Positions 1-14,249 of a stretch of DNA of 64,000 bases are shown piece by piece. Within the stretch, counting starts at the first letter, position 1, and every line of letters starts with the position of its first letter. Under the pieces are notes generated by a model. It did not search any database. It worked only from the letters and a program-made list of their open reading frames with translations, and was not told the origin of the DNA. The DNA comes from a virus. Lineage: Duplodnaviria > Caudoviricetes. The translations under genes were made by a program, and so were the position numbers. The stretch is taken from positions 21,643-85,642 of the IMG/VR virus record IMGVR_UViG_3300026549_000063. One strand, written 5' to 3'.

Positions 1-1484
1 TCCCAATCAGCATCGTTCTTAATACCGTAGCAATTATTCTTCATGTGGATTTCAACATCATCCACCAAAATTTCATAATCACCGAATTCGTCAGGCTGAA
101 CATTTTGATTTTTAACTATCTCAAGAAAATGCTGATACATCTCAGGCTTCATGATAACATCAAGATCCTGAGGGTTGATATCCATACCGTGAGCTCTTAA
201 TGCGCCAGTACCTTCGATAACGTAATTCTCTGCCGGATAATCATCAAGTACATGAACGTACGGATTGTCATCACGATATCTATCAGAACGAGCCAGCATC
301 TGTTTGAAGTCATCGATATCTTTGAACTGATAAATGGTATCTCCTGTATCATAAACCATAAACAGATAATAGTTATCTGTAGTAGGAGAACCATCTGGGC
401 CTCTGACTGGTTTAATAGATACAGGCTCAAAATGCATGGTGTTATCACGGAAGTCATTGATGATATCGTTTATTCCATCAGCAGTAGTAAATCTAGCTAT
501 GGTTCTATCATCTACTTCTACGTATTCACGTTTAAGTGTTTTAGAGTTAATAAGAGCAACAGTATTACTCTGCCCTGCACCAAATGTACCTACAAAGAGC
601 TGAGTAGTCATGACATTTACTATCACAGGAACCAGCGCTTTTAATCCTTCAAATAAAGGTATCAAAGCTTCATCGATACTAAATACATTAGGAGAATCTG
701 GTGACTTAGTTGCAGTTAATAGAGGAGAAGTAATAACGTTACGTGAACCGTAAACAATATCTCTTGCAGCATATTTACCCTGAGCAAATCCATGCTTGTC
801 ATCTATCATGTTTCTGATGTATTCATAGATTTCCTGCAGTTTATTCTGCATCTGGTAACGTATAGGATCAAAGATAGGATCATCTGTTCCATTGTCAGGA
901 AGAGATTTTGTTAACGACAATAAGTTAAGGTACAGTTTATTTATTTTTTCAGATTCAGGCCTACCGTTATGAATTCTAACATCTCTTAATGCAGCTGGAA
1001 GAATAATAAACTTGGTAATGAACAAACGATCTTTATACTTGTTTATTAGTTCTATTTTGTCATTACGCTGAGCTGATTCAGTTCTAGCAAAATTTATCTC
1101 TAACAGATGAGATATAAAGAATTGATATCCTGTATCTGAATTAGGATCATCTCTAGTGGTTCTAACGAAATCTTTAGTAGCAGGATCAAAATAAGCATAC
1201 TGCTTACCGGCAGCTATATCTTGATAAAACCCTTTAAGAGTCAATATCTGTCGATAGAGATGTGGGGATACCAACGTAGTACGTAAATACACAAAACCAC
1301 GCCGTATCAGTCGTTCTCTAGATCCTAACTGTCCAAATATAACTTCGGAGTATAAGCCATCCGGATGAAATCTCTCAGTGGAGGACTCGTACATTGCATG
1401 AGATGTCACAGGTAAGCACTGCTTACGTTCAACGTATTCATCCGGATTGATCATTGTTATGTTAAATGGTGCTAGCTTAGCCAT
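1..1484 (-). CDS. Phage multisubunit RNA polymerase beta-prime N-terminal subunit (partial, 3' end outside window)
   Basis: Hand translation is open from ATG 1484 (RBS GGGAG) to the window edge. Motifs PDGLYSEVIFG..RERLIRRG, ILPAALRD, INKLYLNL and KHGFAQGKYAARDIVYGSRNVIT match beta-prime conserved regions. Lying beside the giant tail lysin suggests the virion RNAP (phiKZ gp180/gp181-like order, from memory). Confidence 0.9.
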   Translation of the reverse strand, partial: MAKLAPFNITMINPDEYVERKQCLPVTSHAMYESSTERFHPDGLYSEVIFGQLGSRERLIRRGFVYLRTTLVSPHLYRQILTLKGFYQDIAAGKQYAYFDPATKDFVRTTRDDPNSDTGYQFFISHLLEINFARTESAQRNDKIELINKYKDRLFITKFIILPAALRDVRIHNGRPESEKINKLYLNLLSLTKSLPDNGTDDPIFDPIRYQMQNKLQEIYEYIRNMIDDKHGFAQGKYAARDIVYGSRNVITSPLLTATKSPDSPNVFSIDEALIPLFEGLKALVPVIVNVMTTQLFVGTFGAGQSNTVALINSKTLKREYVEVDDRTIARFTTADGINDIINDFRDNTMHFEPVSIKPVRGPDGSPTTDNYYLFMVYDTGDTIYQFKDIDDFKQMLARSDRYRDDNPYVHVLDDYPAENYVIEGTGALRAHGMDINPQDLDVIMKPEMYQHFLEIVKNQNVQPDEFGDYEILVDDVEIHMKNNCYGIKNDADW

Positions 1485-1605: not shown

Positions 1606-2424
1606 ATGAGCGCATATTCTGATTTTCTGGATAAACACGATGATCTTATCACTAAGGTTAATGACGCTATCATGTATAGCAAATTTCACGCTATTAAAGA
1701 AGTGTACATAGATTTAGCCCTACTGAAAGATACCAGATTGGGGCTTATACTAGCTACCGATAAAGAAGCATTACCGTATATAAAAGCCAATCTGGATAGA
1801 TACCAGATGAGACCCAATCGTAGTTTTACCTTTGCTTTCCCTAAACTAAAATATAAAGAAAGCGAATACCAGAAAATGTATAAAGATGCCAAATACAGCA
1901 GAGACATCTTTAATTGCAGTCCCGATACTTCACTATCCGGGATGATTAAACGTATCTTCATTATGCTGTATGACAACAATACCCGTGTCAGATATTTTGA
2001 TAAAATACATGTTACTGTCAACACATATCCCTTACAACAGAACGACTTAACTAAGACTTACTGCAATATCTTAAACAATATTTCGGATGGCAGAGCTGTA
2101 GTAGAATTTATCACCACTGATCCGCGTACCATAAATGAAGATAAATGGAGATCTATGGATCTAATGTTTATCGATAACATCAACTATACCTGCGATGTTA
2201 AAGGCACTTTGTATAAACCGTTAATAGAAGAAGCTTCTATGCCTTTAACTCAAATCTATGCACCGTATAGCTGCGAAGACAGTATGCTTCATCAGTGGCA
2301 AAGATACAACGTAGATTTTACCGACAAAGAGACTATGAAGTTACTATTTCAGACTACTGAACTAGTAATGAACACTCTCTGTCATTTCCTATTTGCATCG
2401 TTTGACGTTGCTACCGATAAGTAG
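1606..2424 (+). CDS. Hypothetical protein
   Basis: 272-aa ORF, co-oriented and tightly linked to the giant tail gene; no motif recognised. Confidence 0.75.
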   Translation: MSAYSDFLDKHDDLITKVNDAIMYSKFHAIKEVYIDLALLKDTRLGLILATDKEALPYIKANLDRYQMRPNRSFTFAFPKLKYKESEYQKMYKDAKYSRDIFNCSPDTSLSGMIKRIFIMLYDNNTRVRYFDKIHVTVNTYPLQQNDLTKTYCNILNNISDGRAVVEFITTDPRTINEDKWRSMDLMFIDNINYTCDVKGTLYKPLIEEASMPLTQIYAPYSCEDSMLHQWQRYNVDFTDKETMKLLFQTTELVMNTLCHFLFASFDVATDK

Positions 2425-2438
2425 GAGGATTATTCATT

Positions 2439-5400
2439 ATGAGTTTCTTTGATAAAAAGAGTAAAGACCCGACTTCGAAGGATGCGAAACACGAATTTGA
2501 CAGAGACAATCTGGATTCGGAACTCGACGACCTTCTAAACGACAACTTTGATTATCAGTCCGATGAAGATATAGTCGATCCAGATAAACGACATCCGATA
2601 ATCAAAAAGCTAAGAGATGTGGGTATAGATGTCGATGCTATCAAGAGTAATGCTCTTGAAGGTGCCGGCGAAGGTATCAAAAACGCTATCGATAAATCTA
2701 TGCCTAATGTATCGAGAACCTGGGAAGGAGGACAGAATTTACTATCAGAACTCGATACTCTCAAAACTGAATCACTAGATAAAATTATTCCTGCCTATAA
2801 CGCAACTATGCGTAGTGCCAAGAGAATGGCAACTAGTTTAGCAGGAAGATTACCGTTCAAACTCGATAAGAAAATAGCTGCACTTATCGATAAAATACAC
2901 GAACCTGATGAAGGCGGTTACGAGCCTAAAAGTAAAGATCAGATAAGAGAAGAAAGCCAGAAGAACGCCATGGCCGCAATCTTCCAGGCTGAACAGCAGG
3001 AACGTGTAGAAGATAAGCGTGAAGCCACTATAGAAAAAACCTTTGATAGACGTGTCGGTCAGATACACCATCAGGAAACCGCTAGTATTCTTAACGTCAT
3101 TCGTAATCAAAGTGTTTTTCAGACAGCATTTACTCGTGGTACATTTACTGCTTACCTTAAGAAAGATCTAGAACTTAAATACAAACAGTTATATGCAACT
3201 CAAGATTTACTTGAATCGCATAAACTGATGGTTAAATCTTTCCAGGAGCGTCTTGATGCTATTCGCAAGAATACTGCGCTTCCTGACGTCGATAAGATAA
3301 CCTCAACCGAACTAATCAAAAAGAAAGTCAAAGAAGGTCTACTTAACACAGTAGGCAATAAACTCGGTTCATATTTCGGCGATATGCGTAAGAACATCAT
3401 GGAGCAGTATGTAAAGCCATTCATCAGTCAGATGGAAATGGGTACAACCGCGATGGATATGCTCGGCGGAAATATGGACATGATGCTCGGCAAAGCCCCA
3501 GAGGAATTTCAATGGAGCGATGTGGGCAGAATGGGCTTGAACTTTGGTGTTAAGAAAGTATTTAGCGGGTTTACTAAGCAGCTCACTAACAAAATGCTGG
3601 ATAGCCTAGATCCTGCTACCAGAGCAAAAGTAGAAGGTTATCTCTCGCTTGGCGAAAACGGCATCAAACTACTAATTAACGATTACGCAGCTGGCAGAAT
3701 AGGTGATCCGGACAAACTGTCAGGACTCAAAGATTTCTTAGCTAATATTACTCCTGATCTTCGTCAGTCTGATGAAATATCTACTTCTAATTATGCAGAT
3801 TTAGATAAAGGTGGTAAACTATCTAATCGTACAATTTTAACCATCGAGAAAATTATCCCTGCATACCTAAGGTCACAGACTAAATATCTCGAAATATTAG
3901 CTACTGGCAACACTAATGCAGAAGAACAAGTTTGGGATTTTAAGAAGAATCAATTAACTACCACCTCCGCATATGTCGAAAGCGTACAAAAAGAATTAGC
4001 TGGTTCCAGAAATACACTTCTGTACGAACGCCAAGGAAACCTAAACTCCGCCAGAGATCTTCTTGAAACAAATTTCAAGAAACAAAACGCAGCTTTGTAC
4101 AAAGAAATGGATAAACAGTTAGCCAACTATGCCGACGGTATAACTGCTGTCATGGGTGGCATGGCTGCCAGCAACTACGCAATCGATCATGGCGGAGACG
4201 AAATACTTCTTGACTTCCAAAGAATTAAATCCAGCCTAGAAGCTGAAAATACTGATTACGAAGATAACGCTTTATTCAAAGCAGCCTACGGAAATGTAAA
4301 ACCAGACAAGGTACTGAATGTAACTGAATGGTTCATCAAATTGCTGACAGATCCTAAAACCAATGAACTTAATAAAGGTATGGCTCTTCAGCTCAGAAAT
4401 AAGATAAATGAGATTTCAATAAACAGTACCAATCGTGAAGCTAATGTCATGTTGGCTACCATGGCTGATCAAGACGCTAGCATCTCTAAGAAAGTCAATG
4501 TAACTCACACAGATAAATATGGCCGCACTTATATCGATCGTAATAAAGTAAACAATTTACGTGAACAATATAACGGTAGTTTAACCGCTAAAGAAATTGC
4601 TGGATCGACACTTAATACAAAAGCACAAATGCGGCGGGAAGCTTACAACAGAATGAGTGCAGCCGATCAGGCTAAAGAAGATCGTGCAATAAGAAGAGTT
4701 GAAAACTTCCTATATACAGACGAGGGTAAAGAAGCTCTTAAGAAATTCCTGACTGAGGATAGAGCAGGCAAAAAGATATTCAAGGAATACCAGCGTAATA
4801 ATCCTGGCAAAACAGTAGATGAAGCCATAAAAGATAACGATCCTGATCTTCTTAACGAAGTTAAATATGCGCCTGGCATGCGAGCTAAAGCTGCTGGTAA
4901 AGCTGGATCGTTCTTTGAAATGATCGGTAAATTCTTTGGTGCTGAAGGTCTTGAAAATATTGGTGCTGCGGCTGCTGACAAAGCGTATGACGTAGCTATG
5001 AGCAATGCGCTTAAAGTTATCAACAAATTCGGTAAATCTCTTGGCGATATTCGTTCGGTATTTGTAGATGAGAATGGACATGTCCGAAAACTTGATAACA
5101 TCGACGAAACCGTAATCACTAACTGGCTTATGTCCGTACCGGATAAGGTTAAGTTTTTACAGTTAGTTGAATCTAATAGAGAGCTACAGATAGTAATAGA
5201 TCAAATGCCCGATTTTGCCTGGGAAGCTATTAACTACCTCAAAGCTAACCCGGATGAATTCGATAATCTTTCGTCTGATGAAGCAGGCATAGACAAATTA
5301 TCTAACAACATAGAAAATTTCGAAAATAATGAACAAAATAAGATCGCTCAAGATTTTACTCAAACTACTAAATCAAAGTCTTTAAGAAATCTTAATAGAT

Positions 5401-8400
5401 CTTACAGAAAAGCCAATGTTCGTGCTCCTAAAGGTCCTAAACCTTCAGGCAGAAATGGTAATACTCAGCCTAATGGCGGTCTTAATACTGCTGCGTTTAA
5501 TAATCTGGTTACACTTACTCAGACTCAGAACGCAACTGTAGACTTCATCAAGAGTGATGTATCTAAGATAGCAGCTCTACTAGATCAGCACTTCGGAGGA
5601 AATGGTGGAGCTGGTAATACTCAGCCTAATGGTAATGGTCCTAACGGCCCTAGTGGTTCTCCTACTCCTACGTCTATCGATCTTAGTACCTTAAGTGGTT
5701 CGCTTAATATCGATAACGTAGATATGCGTACTGGTATCGGAAATCTCGATAAGAGTGTTTCTAAGATGCTAGACTTCATGAAGCACAATACCGATACTTT
5801 AGATAACCTTTATAAAACTGCCGAAAAGATTACTACTGAGCACAAGAAATCTTCCAGAGAACGTGGTAGATCTAACAACAAAGCTATGCTGTCTGTAGTA
5901 AAAGCTATAGCGGCTGATGTTGTTGAGATCAAAGAAAATACTGGCAAGTCAGCAAATGATATAGCAAGTATCCGTACTAACACAGATCCAACTGAAGCTG
6001 CTGCGCAGGATAAAAAGAAAAAGAAAGGACTGTTTAATACTATCTTCGTTCAGCCTCTTGCGGCTGCTATCAAAGGCAGTGTAGCTGGATTGTCTTTTGC
6101 TCTTAACAACGCTACTTCGATGATCTATACTCTATTCACCGGTAAGAAACTTAAAAAAGGTTTCGGTGATTTTGGTAGTAAGCTAGGTAGTGCTGGACAC
6201 GGTATTGTTGATCTTGGCGGAAGTGCGATTTCATCTGTTATTAAATTCATCAAGGACATCCATCCATTTGAGAAAGTAACTAAAGTTGCATCCACTGCGT
6301 TTAATGCTGCAGCTGGGCAAGTAGCTCAAACATATTCTGGTTTAACTAGAGCCTACGACGATGTCTATAGTTCTCGTCAGCAAGATAAGTCTAAACCGCT
6401 TGTTTCTGGCGAAGCATTTCGCGATGGACTAGTTGTAGATGCTAAAGGACACAAAGTAAGAACTGTTTACGATATCAAAGGCCCCTGCTATCAATGGGAT
6501 AAAGAAAACAACCGTATCGGCAATATGCTCATTTCTTCTGAAGATATCACTGAAGGAGAAGGACTAATATTTGCTGATGGTAAACCAATTAAATCATCCT
6601 TCTTATCTAGGTTTGCTTCTAAGGTTCGTAGAGTTGGAACTATAGCAACTGATGCTATTTTTAGTTTACCTGGGCTAGTAGGTGGAGCTCTCAAAAAGGC
6701 TATGAAGCTCACTAGCTGGTTATTCACAAAAAGAGACCCGTTCATTGATGTTTACATCATTGATAAAGATACTGCTGAATTTAAGAAAGTAATTAACGGA
6801 AAAGATCTTGTAAATAACAAGACTACTAGAAAGTATGTAGTTAAAGGATTTGGTCCAGGTGATTGGGTCCCTGTTAAATCTGCATATGGCATCGAGAAAG
6901 AAGTTTATGAATTTAAGGATGGTAGCTATCAGGTTATCATTGACGATGACGATTTGAAAAACGGTTTGTACGATGCAAACGGTAATAGGCTAACTAAGTG
7001 GCGAGGAGCATCAATAGCCGGCAAAGCTGCACAGGTTGCTGGTAAAGCCATGCGAATAGCCGGATCTCTGGCACTTAAAGGCGTCAAGCTTGCAGGTAAA
7101 GCTATCAAAGGCGCAGCTGGAAAAGTTATGAAACTGTTCCGTGGTGGATTACATGTATTAGGTGAAAGCGGAACTGCTGTAGGCAAGTTCATCACCTCGG
7201 CCTTCTCCTCGGTCGTTTCCACATTGACAGGATTCGGTATAACCAGGAATGACCTTATCGACATCATTGGCGATAGGTTAATAGACATCTACGAATTACT
7301 AGACGCACGTATGCCAGGTGGTTCCGTTGCAGGCGATAACGACGGTAGCGGCTATCGTGACGGATCATATCGCGATTACCAAAAACGTAAAGAAGAAGAA
7401 AGGAAGAAGCGTAAACAGAAACAAGAAGAACAGGAAAAGAAAAAGAATAAAGATAAGGCTGAAATGGCAGCTGACGGCGAACCCAATGATGGTCCTGAAG
7501 AAGCCGATGAGAATAACTCATCTGGGGAAGGCGGGAGCAGCATTTGGGATTGGATGATGGCAGCTTCCGGTATCAGCGCACTTAAAGACACCGCCGGTGG
7601 ATGGTGGGAAAAGAAAAAACAGAATGGATTAAGACGTGCCCGAATAGCCAGACGCAGAGCGGGTAGAAGACTCAGAAGCATGGGTCGAGCTGCAGGTCGT
7701 GGCATTCGCGGCGGAGCCCGCATGATGGGCCGTGCAGCTGGCACTATGCTCGGTGGTGTAGGCAGAGCTGCCGGAGCAGTACTAGGCGGAGCCGGAAGAG
7801 CAGCTGGAACTGTATTAGGAGCTGGAGCAAGAGGAGTTCTTGGTTTAGCCGGTGGAGCACTTAGACTAGGCGGCGGACTACTTGGACTTACTGGGCGCGT
7901 TGCAGCTGGATTACTTAGCGGTCCTATAGGCTGGGCACTTACTTTAGGTACAGTTGGATACTACACTTATAAATTAGCATCTGACAGCGGTACTACTAAG
8001 CTATTCCGTATACCGAGAGCTAAAGCTTATGGTTTAACGACCAAACAGTGGGAAGCTTTCGAAGACCTTGAAACCGATACTTATAACGCCTGGAAGAATG
8101 GCCAAGAAGGCGTTGATAACGATCGTCTTGAACAATTTGGTGAAAAGATAGATTTCATTGGCGGAATGGGTTACTTCGATGCCGGGGATGACGATAGCGA
8201 AGCAAATAAAATTGAGTTCTTAACTCAATGGTACCGTGCGAGATTTTTACCTGCTTATAAAGACTATGTAAAGATTATTTGCCAGGTAACAAACAATGAT
8301 GGAAAGAAACAGCCTAAAGCTGACGATGTCGATGCATCCAAAGCTTATGCTGTTAAACAGGCTCTTGACAAAGCTTTAGAGAAATATGCAAGCGGTCCTG

Positions 8401-11400
8401 CCAGCAAGCTTGTTCCTAATAAGCAATGCTTTATTAAGTGGTTGGCAGACAGACGTAAAGATGCAAAATTTAGAGAGAAAGAAGAACAACGCAACCGTAA
8501 CAAAGAATTCAGTAAATCTAACTTTAGCCGTGCAGGAAAAGATTTTAGTTACAGCTGGAACGAACTGAAGCACGGCAACTTACTGAACGCAACTTATGCA
8601 TTTGGTAAAGGTATAAGAGATTCTATATTTGGGCTATTCGGATCTATTGCCGATATGGCTAAAGACTTCTACTCTGAAGATGTTAGTTCCTACGATCAAG
8701 CTTGGCGTGAAGCTAAGTTAGTAGCATACAACTTCAAGAAGAAAGAAGCAGCTATAAATAGAAATAAAGAAGTTGGTATCCCCTTTGGCCCCATTGGTAT
8801 CGCCTTTGACCTCACCCGGAGTCTTGTGACAGGAATAACCACTACTGATAAGATAGAATTCCTGGATAACCTTGAAGATAAAGCCAGACCTATCGTCGAC
8901 CAGGAACGTCCTGATCTTGATAGAACTGAGTTAACTGAACTTGCAGATGAACTCATTCCAGATGAAGAGATAAAAGCTAGTGCTAAGAAATTCGGAGGAA
9001 ATACTAAAGAAGTTGAAGATGCTAAGGTAGACTACATCTCAACTTGGTGGAATAGAATCTTTATGCCTATCTTCACCATGTACCTTAGGGCTCTTCGTGC
9101 TGTTACTAAAACTGATATTGGTGATAAGCCTCACCTTAACAGTGTTCCTAAGGAAATCAGAGCACAGACTATCGATGCATTTAAGAAGGGGGCATCTGAC
9201 TACAAGAGTAAGAATAAGCTATTCGATCTCATTCCTACTGCTAAAGGTTATGCTGAATGGTACATGGCTATCGATAAGACTGCTATAGATTCAGCTACTA
9301 CAGTAAGAAGATCTAAGAGCGTTGGAGAAAAAGTAACTGAAGCATTCCAGGGAACTGGGCATCAGTTCGGTGAAGCTTGGGATAAACTTTGGGAGGGAGA
9401 TTTCAAAGGATCCTGGCGTTCACTCACTAAGGGAACTAAGAAACTACTTACAGGTATCGGGAAATCTATCACGGGTATTGGCGAATCTATCGGAGATTAC
9501 TTCTACGGTAGAGGAAGTAATACTGTCGAGAAGAACTCATGGCGCGAATTAAGGTATAAGTACTACAACTATCCTAATGCTACTATTGGCGTAGAAGATC
9601 CCACAACTAAAGCTAGACTAGCTGCTATCGAGGAACTCGAAAAGAAAGCTTTAGCTACCGTTGAGGAAGGCGAAGATGCTGCCAACAACCTAATCAATAC
9701 TGGGCTAGACGACAAAGTACTTGAGAAATTCGGTATTACTATCGGATTCATCAGACCTAAAAAAGGAATTGCTAACTCGAGAGGAAGACGGGGTAATGTA
9801 CGTGCACAGGTAGATTACAGCGATAAGGACAACAAATGGGCTAAAGACTTTATCAGATACTGGGTAGAGCATGTATTCTTACCAGTATATAAGGACTACG
9901 TAACCATAGTCAGTATATACACCGAAAGAGAACCTGGTGATAATGTCAACCCTGATGATATCAAGAAAGAAGAACGCGAAGAGGCAATGGAGTACTTTAA
10001 GAAAGCTGCATCGCCTAAAGCCGCTAAGTACAAAGATTACCCGATGAGTAGCAAAGGCTACGTTAAGTTCATCAAAGAACTCTTAGCCTATGAGAAAGCT
10101 ACAGCCGAAGGTAAGGGCAATGCTCCTGTAACTTCAGCAGTTTCAGCTACTCTTGCTGCAAATAGCGAAAAAAATAAGAATGAGGTAACTAACAGGATAA
10201 ATAGCGTTACAACTGGTATGGGTAAAGATGGTGATAAAGGCGTAGCAGAAGCTACTACTAAAGCAGCGTCCACACTCGATCAGGATATCGCTATAGTAAC
10301 CAGATCTTCCGGATCTAACCCGAAATCCATGGCTGCTTATCTTGGTGTTCCTGATGCTGAAGATAAGAAGATTCCTGCTAAATGGAAAAATATCTTAACC
10401 GCTGGTTCTATCAAGACTCAATTCTTCCAGGCAAGATTAAGATCTTACTCTAACGTTCTCGGTACTCCTCCCGGAGTATATCTAGGCGATACCTTTAAGG
10501 ATAACCTTGAAGGAAAATGGTTCAGAGCTTTCCGTGATTTATTCGACAAAGTTACTTCTGGCCGTAATGCTCAGGATTCTCTTGAAAAGAGTCTATTTGA
10601 CTATCAGAACAACGGTGCTAGCTCAACCTTCGCTGAGAACGTAAGCAAACTGGCAGCATTCACCTTCTTCCAGCTTGGTAACCCTGATGCAGTAAGAATA
10701 GCTGCTTCTAAATGGGAACATCCTAGTTGGATGGATCCTGATGGAAATAGAACTAATCCGGATATCAGTAAAAATATCGATGATTGCATTCAGTATATTA
10801 ACAATGACCTCAAGAAAATGGGAAGAAAAACTGAGGATGACGTTGCTGTTGCTGACTGGCTTGAAAGTGTTGTTGACAAACTTAACAAATGGGCTAACAT
10901 TGTTAGAGAGTGGGTATCCTGGGTTATCAATCCAGTATTTGCGTACTACACTTCTTTCGTCAATAAGCTAACTGGCCATGATGATACAGTAATGCCCGAT
11001 CCTACTGCTATCCCTGCAGCGCAGCGTAGAAATGCTTTAATCATGTTCCTTACCAGAGCCGAGAAAATTTGCTCCAGCGCATCTCGCCCTTATTTACGCG
11101 ATTTCAACTTAGGAACCGGGTTGTTCAATATTCCTGTAGCGCAAATCATGGAAGCGTACGATAAGTTCACTGCCAAAGATAACACTGCGAATAATATCGG
11201 AACTAAGGGTTCTATTAAACGCAACGGTGCTCCTGGATCTGATAAGAACACCAATAAAGATAACGATAAGAGTAAAGATAACGCAGCTGAACCTGCTAAC
11301 AACGAAGGAGCTGCTGGTAAGAGTGGTAGTACTCAATCCGGTACACAATCTCCTAACGCTAATGGAACCGGTGCAAATCCTGAACAGACTATGAGCGATC

Positions 11401-14249
11401 TTGCTAAGCAGTCGTATAAGTACGATCCTAAGGATATACCTACTTCTGCTGAAGCATTCAAATACTTCGCTAGAATTTACAACTCTGATAGGAATCAACT
11501 TACTGCTGACATTATTTCGCTAGTAGACAAAGAAGCTAAAGCTATCGATGACTACTGGAGTTCCAAGGGAATAGAATATTCCGAAGCAGCTCTTACTAAG
11601 TGGTTTGATGATAAGAAAGCTGCTGCTGAGAAGACAGCTGATCACAAAGCCATGGCTAATGGTGGTGTTATTGACTGGCTCAGAGGCGGTGTAGTCAAAG
11701 GCAGAACTGATATCGGAAACGTTACGGTTGGCGAAGCTGGTGCTGAAACTGTATTACCTCACAAGGGCGGTGGAAGATTTAACCAACTTCTAACTAACGC
11801 TATACGTTCCACTTACGGTGCTAGGACAGCAAGCGCAGTTGACGATATACTTAATGGCAAGAGAACTATCAAAGCTTTACTTAGAGATGGCTTAGATGAT
11901 AGAGGCCTTAGAGGTATAACGTTATCTCCTACTGACTTAATCCTGTACAATCTGTACAAGAAGTTCTTCCCTAAGCCTAGTGAAGTACTAGCCGGATCGG
12001 CTAATGGCGATAAAACTGAAACTGAAGATTCTACCGTAAACGACACTTGGTTAGATAAACTCAAACGAGGAGATGTAGCCGGTGCGATAAAAGATAAAGC
12101 AACTGAGATCTATGAAGGTACGACTAGTAAAATAGCACATGCAGCCGGACGTATCTTTGGTAAAGATACTGAAGCTGTAATAGCTAAGGAAAATAAAGCC
12201 AGAGTAGCAGCACAGGCAGCTGTCAGTGACGATAGTACCCTTAAACTAGGTGCCAGAATCTGGAAATACTTCACTAGCCACGGCTGGAGCGAATCTGCTG
12301 TAGCTGGACTGCTCGGTAACTTACAGAAAGAATCTGGTGTTGAATGTATACGTGTTCAGAATGATGTTTCCAGAGACCGTAAGAAGAGTATCGATTACAC
12401 TAACAGTGTAGGTTCTGTCAGAGATCAATTTATCAAAGATAGTAAAGGATACGGCTTAGCACAATGGACAACCTCGAATAGAAAAGCAGGTCTTTGGGAT
12501 CTTGCTGTAAGCAGAGGTAAATCTGTCGGTGATGCTGATGTTCAGATAGAGTTCCTCTTTACTGAATTTGAGCGAGGAACACCAGCTGATAAAGAACCTG
12601 GCAGCAAACTATGCAACGTAATTGGAAAGAACTCACTAGCACAACTTAAGAAGAGCCAAGATGTACAAGAAGCTACTTGGATAGTTCTTAGTCAGTTTGA
12701 GAAACCTTATGTAATATTACACGGAAAGGAAGAAGCGAAAGCAGCTGAATTACAGGAACGTTACACTAACGCAGTAGCCTGGTTCACCAGACTCTCGAAA
12801 GGTAAAGTTAATGCTATTAAGACAGAAGATATGCCTGAAATTCAGACTGACGATAATACCCGTGACGCAGCCGGTGGTGTATCTTACAAAACCTCAGCTG
12901 ATATCAGTGCTTCGGATAATGCTCCATCAAGCGTAGCTGGAGCTGTAAGTGGTATCACAGGATCTGGTCAGCCTTCAGTTAGTTATACTAACGGGCAAGG
13001 TGGAGCAGGAGTAGGCATTCTCAAAGAAGAGAATCTACAACTGTCTTCTGCTGATCTACCTGCAGATGCAGCTGATGCTCTAAACAAGCTGCGTGGTCTG
13101 CGTACGATGAAAGGCTCTACTACTATCTACGGCGGCGGTGGCTGGAAATCGGTAGCACAACTCACACCTGAACTGATCAAACGTCTGTATATAGCTGGTA
13201 AACTCTACGAAGATGATAAAGGTGATAAAGCCAGAGGCTGGACTATAACTTCAGCTTACCGGTCTTATCAGGATCAGGCAAGAATACATGCAAGGCAGCC
13301 TGGTAACTCGGCTTTACCTGGTCGTTCAGCACACGAATCGCACTACGCTGTAGATCTCGGTGATGCTAACGGCGGTGGCGTCATGGGTAAAGGCTACAAC
13401 GTAAGAAATACTGTTGCAGATGAACTGGAACCGTATCTCAACGCTGTTGGTATAACCCGTGTCTATAAGCCTAAGCATAACGAAGAACAACATTTTGAAT
13501 TAAAGAGAAGCGGATTACCCGATATCTCGAAGTTTATCAATACGGCTAATGCTAAATCAGCTATAACCGAAAGTAAACAAGAGATAAATAAAGAACCTAA
13601 GACAGATAGCTCACCGACAGATAGTAAGGAAGATGCTGCTGTTAAAGCTGCTAATAGTACAGGTAAAGATACCTCTATAGCTGAGCCGGAAGTTGCATCT
13701 GCAGCAACAGGAGTAACTTATCCAGATAGTTATAGCGGTGAAACTAAACAGTTAGTTGCAGACAGAGCCGCAGCTAATGCAGCTGCTGATGCTGCAGCGA
13801 CTACTTCAACTACAACTGATACTGCAACCCAGCAGATACAATCCAATGCTCCTAAGATAACAACAACTAGCGTTGCCAACAACGTAGCTGAGGTTAACAA
13901 CGGAAGTGCTGGTATGCTTACAGCTCTTAATTACCAAAGTACTATACTTGAAGCAATTAAGAATTCTGTAACTAATATCTGCAAAACTATGCAGCCCGGT
14001 GATACTAAGAATAACAACAGTAGTTCTACTACTGTCACTAAGCCTGCAACTAATAGTAATGATTTAGCTAATGTAATAGTTAACGCTATGAGAGAAGGTT
14101 TCGCAGCGATGAGTGAACAGCTGGCGCAGGTACTTAAGGCTAATACCCTTACCACATCAACTGGAAATACATCTATGCAGCCTACTACTAGAAAAGTGCA
14201 AATAAAAGAATTTCCTGTAAATACAGCTAAAACAAAACAACATAGATAG
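2439..14249 (+). CDS. Giant tail/tape-measure-like protein with phage-tail-lysozyme and M15 peptidase domains
   Basis: 3936 aa, RBS AGGAGG, long helical Ala/Gly/Lys-rich body. Has an ANGG...GEAGAE motif, a lysozyme-like GWSESAVAGLLGNLQKES...GYGLAQWT block (~12250-12790) and an M15-like ITSAYRS...SAHESHYAVD...HFE block (~13240-13500). Confidence 0.85.
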   Translation: MSFFDKKSKDPTSKDAKHEFDRDNLDSELDDLLNDNFDYQSDEDIVDPDKRHPIIKKLRDVGIDVDAIKSNALEGAGEGIKNAIDKSMPNVSRTWEGGQNLLSELDTLKTESLDKIIPAYNATMRSAKRMATSLAGRLPFKLDKKIAALIDKIHEPDEGGYEPKSKDQIREESQKNAMAAIFQAEQQERVEDKREATIEKTFDRRVGQIHHQETASILNVIRNQSVFQTAFTRGTFTAYLKKDLELKYKQLYATQDLLESHKLMVKSFQERLDAIRKNTALPDVDKITSTELIKKKVKEGLLNTVGNKLGSYFGDMRKNIMEQYVKPFISQMEMGTTAMDMLGGNMDMMLGKAPEEFQWSDVGRMGLNFGVKKVFSGFTKQLTNKMLDSLDPATRAKVEGYLSLGENGIKLLINDYAAGRIGDPDKLSGLKDFLANITPDLRQSDEISTSNYADLDKGGKLSNRTILTIEKIIPAYLRSQTKYLEILATGNTNAEEQVWDFKKNQLTTTSAYVESVQKELAGSRNTLLYERQGNLNSARDLLETNFKKQNAALYKEMDKQLANYADGITAVMGGMAASNYAIDHGGDEILLDFQRIKSSLEAENTDYEDNALFKAAYGNVKPDKVLNVTEWFIKLLTDPKTNELNKGMALQLRNKINEISINSTNREANVMLATMADQDASISKKVNVTHTDKYGRTYIDRNKVNNLREQYNGSLTAKEIAGSTLNTKAQMRREAYNRMSAADQAKEDRAIRRVENFLYTDEGKEALKKFLTEDRAGKKIFKEYQRNNPGKTVDEAIKDNDPDLLNEVKYAPGMRAKAAGKAGSFFEMIGKFFGAEGLENIGAAAADKAYDVAMSNALKVINKFGKSLGDIRSVFVDENGHVRKLDNIDETVITNWLMSVPDKVKFLQLVESNRELQIVIDQMPDFAWEAINYLKANPDEFDNLSSDEAGIDKLSNNIENFENNEQNKIAQDFTQTTKSKSLRNLNRSYRKANVRAPKGPKPSGRNGNTQPNGGLNTAAFNNLVTLTQTQNATVDFIKSDVSKIAALLDQHFGGNGGAGNTQPNGNGPNGPSGSPTPTSIDLSTLSGSLNIDNVDMRTGIGNLDKSVSKMLDFMKHNTDTLDNLYKTAEKITTEHKKSSRERGRSNNKAMLSVVKAIAADVVEIKENTGKSANDIASIRTNTDPTEAAAQDKKKKKGLFNTIFVQPLAAAIKGSVAGLSFALNNATSMIYTLFTGKKLKKGFGDFGSKLGSAGHGIVDLGGSAISSVIKFIKDIHPFEKVTKVASTAFNAAAGQVAQTYSGLTRAYDDVYSSRQQDKSKPLVSGEAFRDGLVVDAKGHKVRTVYDIKGPCYQWDKENNRIGNMLISSEDITEGEGLIFADGKPIKSSFLSRFASKVRRVGTIATDAIFSLPGLVGGALKKAMKLTSWLFTKRDPFIDVYIIDKDTAEFKKVINGKDLVNNKTTRKYVVKGFGPGDWVPVKSAYGIEKEVYEFKDGSYQVIIDDDDLKNGLYDANGNRLTKWRGASIAGKAAQVAGKAMRIAGSLALKGVKLAGKAIKGAAGKVMKLFRGGLHVLGESGTAVGKFITSAFSSVVSTLTGFGITRNDLIDIIGDRLIDIYELLDARMPGGSVAGDNDGSGYRDGSYRDYQKRKEEERKKRKQKQEEQEKKKNKDKAEMAADGEPNDGPEEADENNSSGEGGSSIWDWMMAASGISALKDTAGGWWEKKKQNGLRRARIARRRAGRRLRSMGRAAGRGIRGGARMMGRAAGTMLGGVGRAAGAVLGGAGRAAGTVLGAGARGVLGLAGGALRLGGGLLGLTGRVAAGLLSGPIGWALTLGTVGYYTYKLASDSGTTKLFRIPRAKAYGLTTKQWEAFEDLETDTYNAWKNGQEGVDNDRLEQFGEKIDFIGGMGYFDAGDDDSEANKIEFLTQWYRARFLPAYKDYVKIICQVTNNDGKKQPKADDVDASKAYAVKQALDKALEKYASGPASKLVPNKQCFIKWLADRRKDAKFREKEEQRNRNKEFSKSNFSRAGKDFSYSWNELKHGNLLNATYAFGKGIRDSIFGLFGSIADMAKDFYSEDVSSYDQAWREAKLVAYNFKKKEAAINRNKEVGIPFGPIGIAFDLTRSLVTGITTTDKIEFLDNLEDKARPIVDQERPDLDRTELTELADELIPDEEIKASAKKFGGNTKEVEDAKVDYISTWWNRIFMPIFTMYLRALRAVTKTDIGDKPHLNSVPKEIRAQTIDAFKKGASDYKSKNKLFDLIPTAKGYAEWYMAIDKTAIDSATTVRRSKSVGEKVTEAFQGTGHQFGEAWDKLWEGDFKGSWRSLTKGTKKLLTGIGKSITGIGESIGDYFYGRGSNTVEKNSWRELRYKYYNYPNATIGVEDPTTKARLAAIEELEKKALATVEEGEDAANNLINTGLDDKVLEKFGITIGFIRPKKGIANSRGRRGNVRAQVDYSDKDNKWAKDFIRYWVEHVFLPVYKDYVTIVSIYTEREPGDNVNPDDIKKEEREEAMEYFKKAASPKAAKYKDYPMSSKGYVKFIKELLAYEKATAEGKGNAPVTSAVSATLAANSEKNKNEVTNRINSVTTGMGKDGDKGVAEATTKAASTLDQDIAIVTRSSGSNPKSMAAYLGVPDAEDKKIPAKWKNILTAGSIKTQFFQARLRSYSNVLGTPPGVYLGDTFKDNLEGKWFRAFRDLFDKVTSGRNAQDSLEKSLFDYQNNGASSTFAENVSKLAAFTFFQLGNPDAVRIAASKWEHPSWMDPDGNRTNPDISKNIDDCIQYINNDLKKMGRKTEDDVAVADWLESVVDKLNKWANIVREWVSWVINPVFAYYTSFVNKLTGHDDTVMPDPTAIPAAQRRNALIMFLTRAEKICSSASRPYLRDFNLGTGLFNIPVAQIMEAYDKFTAKDNTANNIGTKGSIKRNGAPGSDKNTNKDNDKSKDNAAEPANNEGAAGKSGSTQSGTQSPNANGTGANPEQTMSDLAKQSYKYDPKDIPTSAEAFKYFARIYNSDRNQLTADIISLVDKEAKAIDDYWSSKGIEYSEAALTKWFDDKKAAAEKTADHKAMANGGVIDWLRGGVVKGRTDIGNVTVGEAGAETVLPHKGGGRFNQLLTNAIRSTYGARTASAVDDILNGKRTIKALLRDGLDDRGLRGITLSPTDLILYNLYKKFFPKPSEVLAGSANGDKTETEDSTVNDTWLDKLKRGDVAGAIKDKATEIYEGTTSKIAHAAGRIFGKDTEAVIAKENKARVAAQAAVSDDSTLKLGARIWKYFTSHGWSESAVAGLLGNLQKESGVECIRVQNDVSRDRKKSIDYTNSVGSVRDQFIKDSKGYGLAQWTTSNRKAGLWDLAVSRGKSVGDADVQIEFLFTEFERGTPADKEPGSKLCNVIGKNSLAQLKKSQDVQEATWIVLSQFEKPYVILHGKEEAKAAELQERYTNAVAWFTRLSKGKVNAIKTEDMPEIQTDDNTRDAAGGVSYKTSADISASDNAPSSVAGAVSGITGSGQPSVSYTNGQGGAGVGILKEENLQLSSADLPADAADALNKLRGLRTMKGSTTIYGGGGWKSVAQLTPELIKRLYIAGKLYEDDKGDKARGWTITSAYRSYQDQARIHARQPGNSALPGRSAHESHYAVDLGDANGGGVMGKGYNVRNTVADELEPYLNAVGITRVYKPKHNEEQHFELKRSGLPDISKFINTANAKSAITESKQEINKEPKTDSSPTDSKEDAAVKAANSTGKDTSIAEPEVASAATGVTYPDSYSGETKQLVADRAAANAAADAAATTSTTTDTATQQIQSNAPKITTTSVANNVAEVNNGSAGMLTALNYQSTILEAIKNSVTNICKTMQPGDTKNNNSSSTTVTKPATNSNDLANVIVNAMREGFAAMSEQLAQVLKANTLTTSTGNTSMQPTTRKVQIKEFPVNTAKTKQHR

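Follow-up and report, generated by a model that had tools for sequence, protein, structure and literature searches.

A putative nucleotidyltransferase domain nested in the RNA polymerase beta-prime subunit of uncultured phiKZ-like phages

Can a phage RNA polymerase (RNAP) carry a second nucleotidyl-transfer enzyme inside its own catalytic subunit? The question arises at the left edge of a 64,000-nucleotide (nt) stretch of uncultured phage DNA (the window; positions 21643-85642 of a single 85,642-bp IMG/VR virus record, IMGVR_UViG_3300026549_000063, whose full-length coordinates are given here as G000:C1), where a minus-strand open reading frame (ORF) encodes most of an RNAP beta-prime subunit. 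An initial annotation, made from the letters of the window, had proposed that a nucleotidyltransferase (NTase)-like domain is inserted in this subunit, a proposal borne out both by the absence of the segment from homologous proteins and by its predicted fold. We are highly confident that a complete, small (~140 amino acids, aa) NTase domain of the Pol-beta superfamily is nested in a loop of the gp180-type beta-prime subunit, that it was acquired once in one uncultured phiKZ-like clade, and that it has since been under the same purifying selection as the polymerase core. The insertion site is a surface loop of the catalytic subunit.

Because the ORF is open at the left window edge, the gene was missing from the ORF track of the window, as the initial annotation had remarked. 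In the complete record, which is ~30% complete by CheckV and fits a piece of a ~280-kb genome (complete genomes of the clade run to ~260-290 kb, with contigs of 262 kb for P0022 and 287 kb for L012), the frame continues for a further 631 nt to a left end at G000:C1:21015, outside the window, and the full ORF, whose recovery the annotation had advised, encodes a protein of 704 aa (P0002). Its start is an ATG at window position 1484 (MAKLAPFN...), the same start as in homologs. Residues 3-399 match PHROG 2986, ‘RNA polymerase beta subunit’ (E 5e-134), in agreement with the typical beta-prime blocks that had been read N-terminal to the stretch at issue; the two peptides quoted from that stretch are also present on the minus strand, NYVIEGTGALRAHGMDINPQDLDVIMK at window 147-227 (residues 420-446) and DDVEIHM at window 42-59 (residues 475-481). 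P0002 matches 313 jumbo-phage records by tblastn, among them phiKZ gp180 at 37.5% identity (E 2e-51), and the profile of its family matches the beta-prime N subunit of the AR9 non-virion RNAP (7s01_d; E 7e-6) and aligns DHDGD, at residues 641-645, to the bacterial NADFDGD region. Judged by these sequence relationships, P0002 is a phiKZ gp180-type beta-prime N-terminal subunit of a virion RNAP (vRNAP), and the initial suggestion of a probable virion-type enzyme follows from the same orthology. phiKZ gp180 is a subunit of the virion RNAP (PMC8287921), which is packaged at ~10 copies per virion and ejected along with the DNA (PMC10612078). The RNAP gene is divergent from a giant gene annotated as tail lysin or ‘tail fiber’, as it is in phiKZ, Noxifer, Bosolaphorus and PhiEaH1; orthology with gp180, together with this synteny with a gp181-like giant lysin, suggests that P0002 too would be packaged in the virion and ejected from it.

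Within P0002, residues ~404-548 constitute an insertion of 145 aa that has no counterpart in alignments to phiKZ gp180 (490 aa), Noxifer gp196 (556 aa) or Bosolaphorus gp165 (538 aa). We compared the length of this region in 43 ORFs from IMG/VR loci and 12 database proteins, using anchors at P0002 residues 385-560: 18 insert-bearing sequences have 151-177 residues from anchor to anchor (176 in P0002 itself), as against 28-40 in the other 37. In all, 49 loci and 12 proteins were covered, and the short span of 28-40 residues is that of phiKZ gp180, Noxifer gp196, Bosolaphorus gp165 and 33 IMG/VR homologs. The segment is thus not collinear with ordinary beta-prime sequence; collinearity was the outcome that the initial annotation had named as fatal to its proposal. 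The window holds only the part of the domain made up of residues 404-494; residues 495-548, which include its most conserved C-terminal helix, are encoded to the left of the window at G000:C1:21483-21644. A tblastn search of 50,697 GenBank phage records with the insert as query yielded no match below E 1; matches to Dickeya phage, which lie on the strand opposite to the annotated gene, were set aside as chance.

The history of the insert was read from a tree of the RNAP core from which the columns of the insert had been left out. On it, the 16 rows that carry the insert group in a single clade (support of 97 in the Shimodaira-Hasegawa-like approximate likelihood-ratio test, SH-aLRT), to which a contig without the insert (L013) is sister, and their distribution takes one change: the insert was gained once. 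In closer relatives, insert and core are alike in identity (80.7 versus 80.0%, and 53.8 versus 55.8%). Against two 99%-identical loci (L007 and L008), the insert shows 15 synonymous and 0 nonsynonymous differences and the core 42 and 9; against a further locus (L009), the nonsynonymous rate dN is 0.133 for the insert and 0.132 for the core. This equal constraint indicates that the domain is maintained as strictly as the polymerase itself.

What kind of domain has been so conserved? An AlphaFold2 model of the insert built on a 19-sequence alignment reached a predicted local distance difference test score (pLDDT) of 89 and a predicted template-modelling score (pTM) of 0.83; a single-sequence prediction was useless, with pLDDT 35. 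In the model the elements run strand, G-T, helix, strand (DLDVI), helix, two strands, helix, two strands, two helices, and it contains the alpha/beta core expected of Pol-beta-like NTases (helix, strand 1, helix, strand 2, helix, further strands). DSSP assigns, in insert numbering, a strand at 26-29, a helix at 31-36 and a strand at 46-50 across G-T...DLD, and strands at 76-79 and 82-86 that are candidates for the third carboxylate. Foldseek against the Protein Data Bank (PDB) returned TM1012 (E 1e-4), MenT1, mimivirus poly(A) polymerase, LnuA and ANT(2'')-Ia; in that search, in VIA-align comparisons of its matches and in a separate scan of 48,161 PDB representatives, every top match was an NTase of the Pol-beta superfamily, so that the possibility, raised with the initial proposal, that the fold would prove to be something else did not materialize. 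MenT1, MenT3 and MenT4 and viral poly(A) polymerases are all among the structural neighbours, and ESM-Atlas features point toward ANT(2''), DUF6036 and DUF7277 clusters. On the strength of the model, the insert is almost certainly of the TM1012/LnuA/ANT(2'')-Ia/MenT1 structural type.

Sequence families are much less informative. No Pfam family exceeds threshold on the insert. DUF7277 (PF23942) reaches 16.5 bits (E 0.014) against a gathering cut-off of 27 over the G[ST]...DxD region and is likewise sub-threshold in 5 of 19 members, making it a possible distant relative; PHROGs gave only a sub-threshold match, phrog_33558. None of the 19 members matches the Pfam family DUF1814 (AbiEii/MenT), and the insert does not fall in the ANT(2'') (PF10706) or LnuA sequence families. 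Searches of PDB sequences with the whole protein, the insert, its free-standing homolog (below) and an insert-only profile found no NTase; matches to VEGF at E 0.2-0.8 were discarded as noise. Fold and motifs put the insert in the Pol-beta NTase superfamily, outside every defined sequence family.

The motif that first drew attention to the segment has fared unevenly. The G-[ST] and DxD positions read by the initial annotation are invariant in all but one member, and D440-L-D442-V443 follows T426 by 13 residues, within the 9-13 spacing of the signature; the strict form, with a hydrophobic residue before the glycine, does not occur, that position being E424. In its relaxed form (G[GST]-x9-13-D-h-[DE]-h) the motif turns up 3 times among the genome's long open frames, compared with 2.3 expected from shuffled sequences, and is by itself not above chance. 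The assignment as an NTase therefore relies on conservation and fold. G425, G433, D440 and D442 are invariant in 11 full-length members, R529, D532 and K535 are invariant as well, and G425-[ST]426, G433, D440 and D442 are kept in the free-standing homolog and in all full-length members except one (L011), even though insert identity drops to 28%. Each confidently aligned member has at least one acidic residue at the positions of E471 and E478, the candidates for the third carboxylate: E478 is lost in P0004, E471 is lost in P0005, P0006 and P0007, and L012 keeps only a probable equivalent of E471. Conservation is highest in the C-terminal helix R529-x-K531-D532-K-x-K535, an element that the free-standing form shares. 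Conservation of the G-[ST], the DxD, an h[DE]h strand and the R-x-K-D-K-x-K helix suggests that the insert is catalytically competent. The exception, L011 (L011:5219-5557 (+), IMGVR_UViG_3300021255_005860), has a degenerate domain in which DLD has become ELT and ~25 residues (helix 3/strand 3) are deleted and the third-carboxylate segment is lost, with G425, G433, R529, K531, D532 and K535 retained and the C-terminal R-L-K-D-K-D-K helix intact.

Relatives of the insert also exist outside the polymerase. An exhaustive phmmer search of 1.84 billion representatives returned six matches, all of them either gp180-type proteins or a small free-standing form. The latter, P0007 (145 aa; E 2e-7), represents a cluster of 18 metagenomic members of 142-148 aa on contigs of up to 122 kb, with another of 42 kb; an 82-aa sequence that might have been a second such form (P0008) is mostly identical to part of inserts such as that of P0023, and we regard it as a fragment. 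No additional free-standing relatives emerged from word-indexed searches that used P0007 or the insert-only profile, and a search of viral contigs for loci related to that of P0007 found nothing. On the one contig inspected (Ga0256405_10009359), the free-standing gene lies at L071:6616-7053 among small unannotated genes. A 328-aa protein 3.5 kb away (L071:10592-11578 (+)) matches Pfam Tad3, a type I Thoeris inhibitor (E 2e-18, 66.8 bits), and two genes upstream (L071:4887-5402) is a weak FtsJ-like methyltransferase match that falls below the cut-off (E 2e-3).

At the level of fold, the relatives extend to cultured phages: Foldseek against viral models finds similar free-standing NTase-fold proteins of ~125-215 aa in RP12, PhiEaH1, RSF1, EL, 201phi2-1, Noxifer and Phabio. 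A standard genome search with the insert-only profile gave no match in the PhiEaH1, Noxifer, phiKZ, Bosolaphorus and L013 records. Unfiltered hmmsearch with the hidden Markov model (HMM) of the insert ranked PhiEaH1 gp184 first, at an E of 0.017 among 600 ORFs that is marginal alone. This hypothetical protein of 156 aa (NC_023610.1:150888-151358 (-)) bears an ...SGAALVVHG...TDIDI... motif and is encoded in a run of hypothetical genes downstream of SbcC, not adjacent to the vRNAP genes. It appears to be the BFVD entry W8CZP8 that Foldseek matched, the two being paired by phage and length (156 aa) only.

Where the domain sits in the polymerase bears on what it might do. In the N-terminal anchor, I-P276-L-F-E-G-L-K-A-L-V-P286, the spacing of 10 between the two prolines equals that in E. 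coli beta-prime C-G-L-P369...P379, and P276, F278, K282 and P286 are invariant in the family. The C-terminal anchor, T574-R575-Y-P577-V-L-N, again invariant in the family, probably corresponds to E. coli N424-R425-A-P427-T-L-H. Between these points in E. coli lies the dock (beta-prime residues 381-414), which forms one side of the RNA exit channel (PMC4499122). The insert begins downstream of the N-terminal LP..L..P anchor and ends 26 residues before R575, a position that, going by the motifs, would put it within the dock-equivalent segment, next to the RNA exit channel. All gp180-type proteins have ~115 extra residues in this segment, which makes its geometry uncertain.

We propose that the insert works in cis with early transcription. 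It would transfer a nucleoside monophosphate (NMP) from a nucleoside triphosphate (NTP) to the 3'-OH of RNA that this same polymerase has made; the transcript, once released, would receive a short non-templated tail on its way out through the exit channel; and the ejected polymerase would be a combined transcription and RNA-end-modification machine. Action in cis on the 3' ends of its own RNA seems to us the most likely mechanism, one that we put forward tentatively and at below an even chance. The apparent position at the dock speaks for this mechanism. RNA is favoured as the acceptor because the structural neighbours include MenT1, MenT3 and MenT4, which act on tRNA 3' ends, as well as viral poly(A) polymerases, and because insertion inside an essential subunit would be a harder route than terminal fusion for mere delivery of an enzyme. 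In a form that is possible if doubtful, the NTase at the dock would add non-templated nucleotides or a cap-like nucleotide to early transcripts; the polymerase would then parallel, in a bacterial virus, the virion transcription apparatus of poxviruses, which has a poly(A) polymerase or capping enzyme of its own, except that here the enzyme would be fused into the catalytic subunit.

Several observations weigh against modification of the polymerase's own RNA. The domain is uniformly acidic (isoelectric point (pI) 4.7-5.7, net charge -3 to -12 in 13 members) and lacks the additional RNA-binding module of poly(A) polymerases, CCA-adding enzymes and terminal uridylyltransferases (TUTs); LnuA and ANT(2''), two of the four structures nearest to it, have small molecules as substrates; and the free-standing homolog has no linkage to RNAP genes. 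Since L011 keeps the domain despite its ELT and the partial deletion of the core, some role must survive loss of catalysis. The placement at the dock itself depends on short motif anchors, as hhalign of the family against E. coli beta-prime 300-520 gave a confident alignment for the catalytic region only.

An active NTase might instead ride on the packaged and ejected RNAP as a passenger, so as to be on hand when infection begins, and nucleotidylate something other than the RNA that the polymerase makes. Candidate targets would be a small molecule, such as a host immune signalling nucleotide or a cationic metabolite (LnuA and ANT(2'') modify antibiotics), host tRNA (as for MenT) or a host protein. 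The acidic pI is what might be expected of enzymes that bind cationic ligands, the free-standing homolog is found in an array of small accessory genes with a Tad3-domain gene nearby, small free-standing NTase-fold proteins are common in cultured phiKZ-like phages, and the ~10 vRNAP copies ejected per phiKZ virion (PMC10612078) would bring the enzyme along. Yet in phiKZ the ejected vRNAP remains with the injected DNA in the early compartment (PMC10612078, PMC13282480), which would limit its access to host macromolecules, though not to small molecules or to the enzyme's own RNA; fusion to the terminus of any packaged protein would be an easier means of delivery than insertion in a catalytic subunit; and across deep divergence the insert has been constrained as tightly as the RNAP core. 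We regard this alternative as possible, at a probability a little below that of action in cis.

Less probable again is that the NTase fold serves as a structural or regulatory element and transfers no NMP. It could then be a switch that senses NTPs or other nucleotides, a surface for vRNAP assembly, packaging or ejection, or a landing site at the dock for an initiation factor. Cellular RNAPs bind factors at their dock, TFIIB in the case of Pol II. The persistence of the domain in L011, with DxD changed to E-L-T and helix 3/strand 3 deleted, accords with such a role, as does the lack of E478 in P0004. An element of this sort would nevertheless leave the invariance of G-[ST] and both aspartates in every member but L011, at insert identities down to 28%, hard to explain without nucleotide and metal binding, and the same residues are kept in the free-standing homolog. 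The balance of probability goes to mechanisms of some other kind.

Finally, that the segment is ordinary beta-prime sequence with a chance NTase-like motif, as the chance frequency of the motif and the lack of any Pfam NTase family at threshold or PDB sequence match might have suggested, is rejected as extremely improbable: no homolog outside a single clade has the segment, which adopts an NTase fold with high confidence in the model and has a free-standing homolog of its own. The features on which these arguments draw, together with a 12-aa expansion specific to the clade, are collected in Table 1.

Table 1. Features of the RNAP gene and of its inserted domain (window positions unless marked C1, which denotes the full record).
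Feature	Position	Strand	Basis
RNAP beta-prime N-terminal subunit, residues 1-494 of 704	3..1484	-	ORF, PHROG 2986, tblastn, profile match
Inserted NTase-fold domain, in-window part (residues 404-494 of ~404-548)	3..275	-	absence from homologs; AlphaFold2 model; fold matches
Two candidate third-carboxylate strands: Y-E471-I (window 72-74) and V-E478-I (window 51-53), then H480, K482	51..74	-	model strands, alignment
Putative NTase motif I, I423-E-G425-T426...D440-L-D442-V443: strand 1/helix turn and strand 2 with two candidate metal-binding aspartates	156..218	-	conservation, DSSP
12-aa clade-specific expansion, PVRGPDGSPTTD region, residues ~358-369, upstream of the NTase insert	369..419	-	gap in phiKZ, Noxifer, Bosolaphorus alignment
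N-terminal anchor EALIPLFEGLKALV, residues 272-285, taken as E. coli beta-prime CGLPKKMALELFKP (366-379)	630..671	-	motif inference
Catalytic DHDGD, residues 641-645	C1:21192-21206, left of window	-	profile alignment

The surroundings of the gene were also inspected. The divergent neighbour is a 3936-aa ORF (window 2439-14249 (+)) in the position of phiKZ gp181, a tail-associated endolysin encoded by a 6.7-kb gene, and is far longer; judging by sequence, it has parts resembling lysozymes or peptidases toward the C terminus and extended linkers of low complexity. The gap that separates this ORF from the RNAP gene holds a 272-aa ORF (window 1606-2424) that matches phrog_3328, of unknown function. 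On the other side, ~1.1 kb downstream of the RNAP gene, is a DNA methyltransferase (phrog_56, E 7e-79; L001:7054-7911 (-), equal to G000:C1:19054-19911), and the terminase large subunit (phrog_2, E 1e-38) is at L001:3282-5426.

A separate observation concerns the catalytic motif of the polymerase. The annotated coding sequence of phiKZ gp180 (L002:1489-4026; AF399011.1 186721-189258) stops at ...LGAD*, within the catalytic DFDGD motif, and is followed by gp179, whose sequence looks like that of an HNH-type homing endonuclease; the gp180 gene appears to be split by an intron at the active site. The insert-clade members P0005, P0013 and P0016-21 (647-658 aa) likewise terminate directly after DHDG, and several IMG/VR ORFs of 477-489 aa, shorter than their relatives, may be cut at the same motif. 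The pattern suggests recurrent insertion of introns or homing elements at the DxDGD motif.

We know of no multisubunit RNAP with a second nucleotidyl-transfer active site inside its catalytic subunit, and in the literature searched we found no description of an NTase within a jumbo-phage or other multisubunit RNAP. On sequence and model, an NTase in beta-prime would be a new domain architecture with a putative second active site. If active, it points to an unrecognised step at the very start of jumbo-phage infection, which could be modification of early RNA or the work of a pre-made enzyme acting before phage gene expression. It also links the uncharacterised small NTase-fold proteins of cultured phiKZ-like phages to the early infection machinery.

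How does this arrangement compare with known systems? With phiKZ gp180 and its orthologs, the insert-bearing proteins share 30-37% core identity, the same conserved blocks, including R575/P577 and the DxDGD elements, and the divergent arrangement beside a giant gp181-like tail lysin gene; they differ in that the orthologs have 490-556 aa and 28-40 residues at the site, whereas members of the insert clade have ~650-710 aa and a 145-aa NTase domain. TM1012 (PDB 2ewr/2fcl), LnuA (4fo1/4wh5) and ANT(2'')-Ia (5cfs/4xje) are, like the insert, small single-domain NTases of Pol-beta type, at 10-11% identity to it. All three are free-standing, LnuA and ANT(2'')-Ia acting on antibiotics and TM1012 being uncharacterised, in contrast to a domain embedded in an RNAP. 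The toxins MenT1, MenT3, MenT4 and AbiEii (DUF1814) resemble the insert at the level of fold only; there is no DUF1814 match, and the insert has no antitoxin partner, is acidic rather than tRNA-binding in character, and lies within an RNAP gene.

Among viruses, the virion-associated poly(A) polymerases of poxviruses, asfarviruses and mimiviruses are separate and much larger proteins with RNA-binding parts, whereas the insert is minimal and covalently part of the RNAP. That a jumbo-phage RNAP subunit can bear an accessory enzyme domain has a precedent in the RNAPs of Bacillus (AR9-like) jumbo phages, in which an HD phosphohydrolase is fused to the C-terminal part of beta, the only such case in a comparison of 224 jumbo phages (PMC7824862). 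That domain has a different fold, is carried by a different subunit and was added by terminal fusion; the NTase domain described here is inserted internally.

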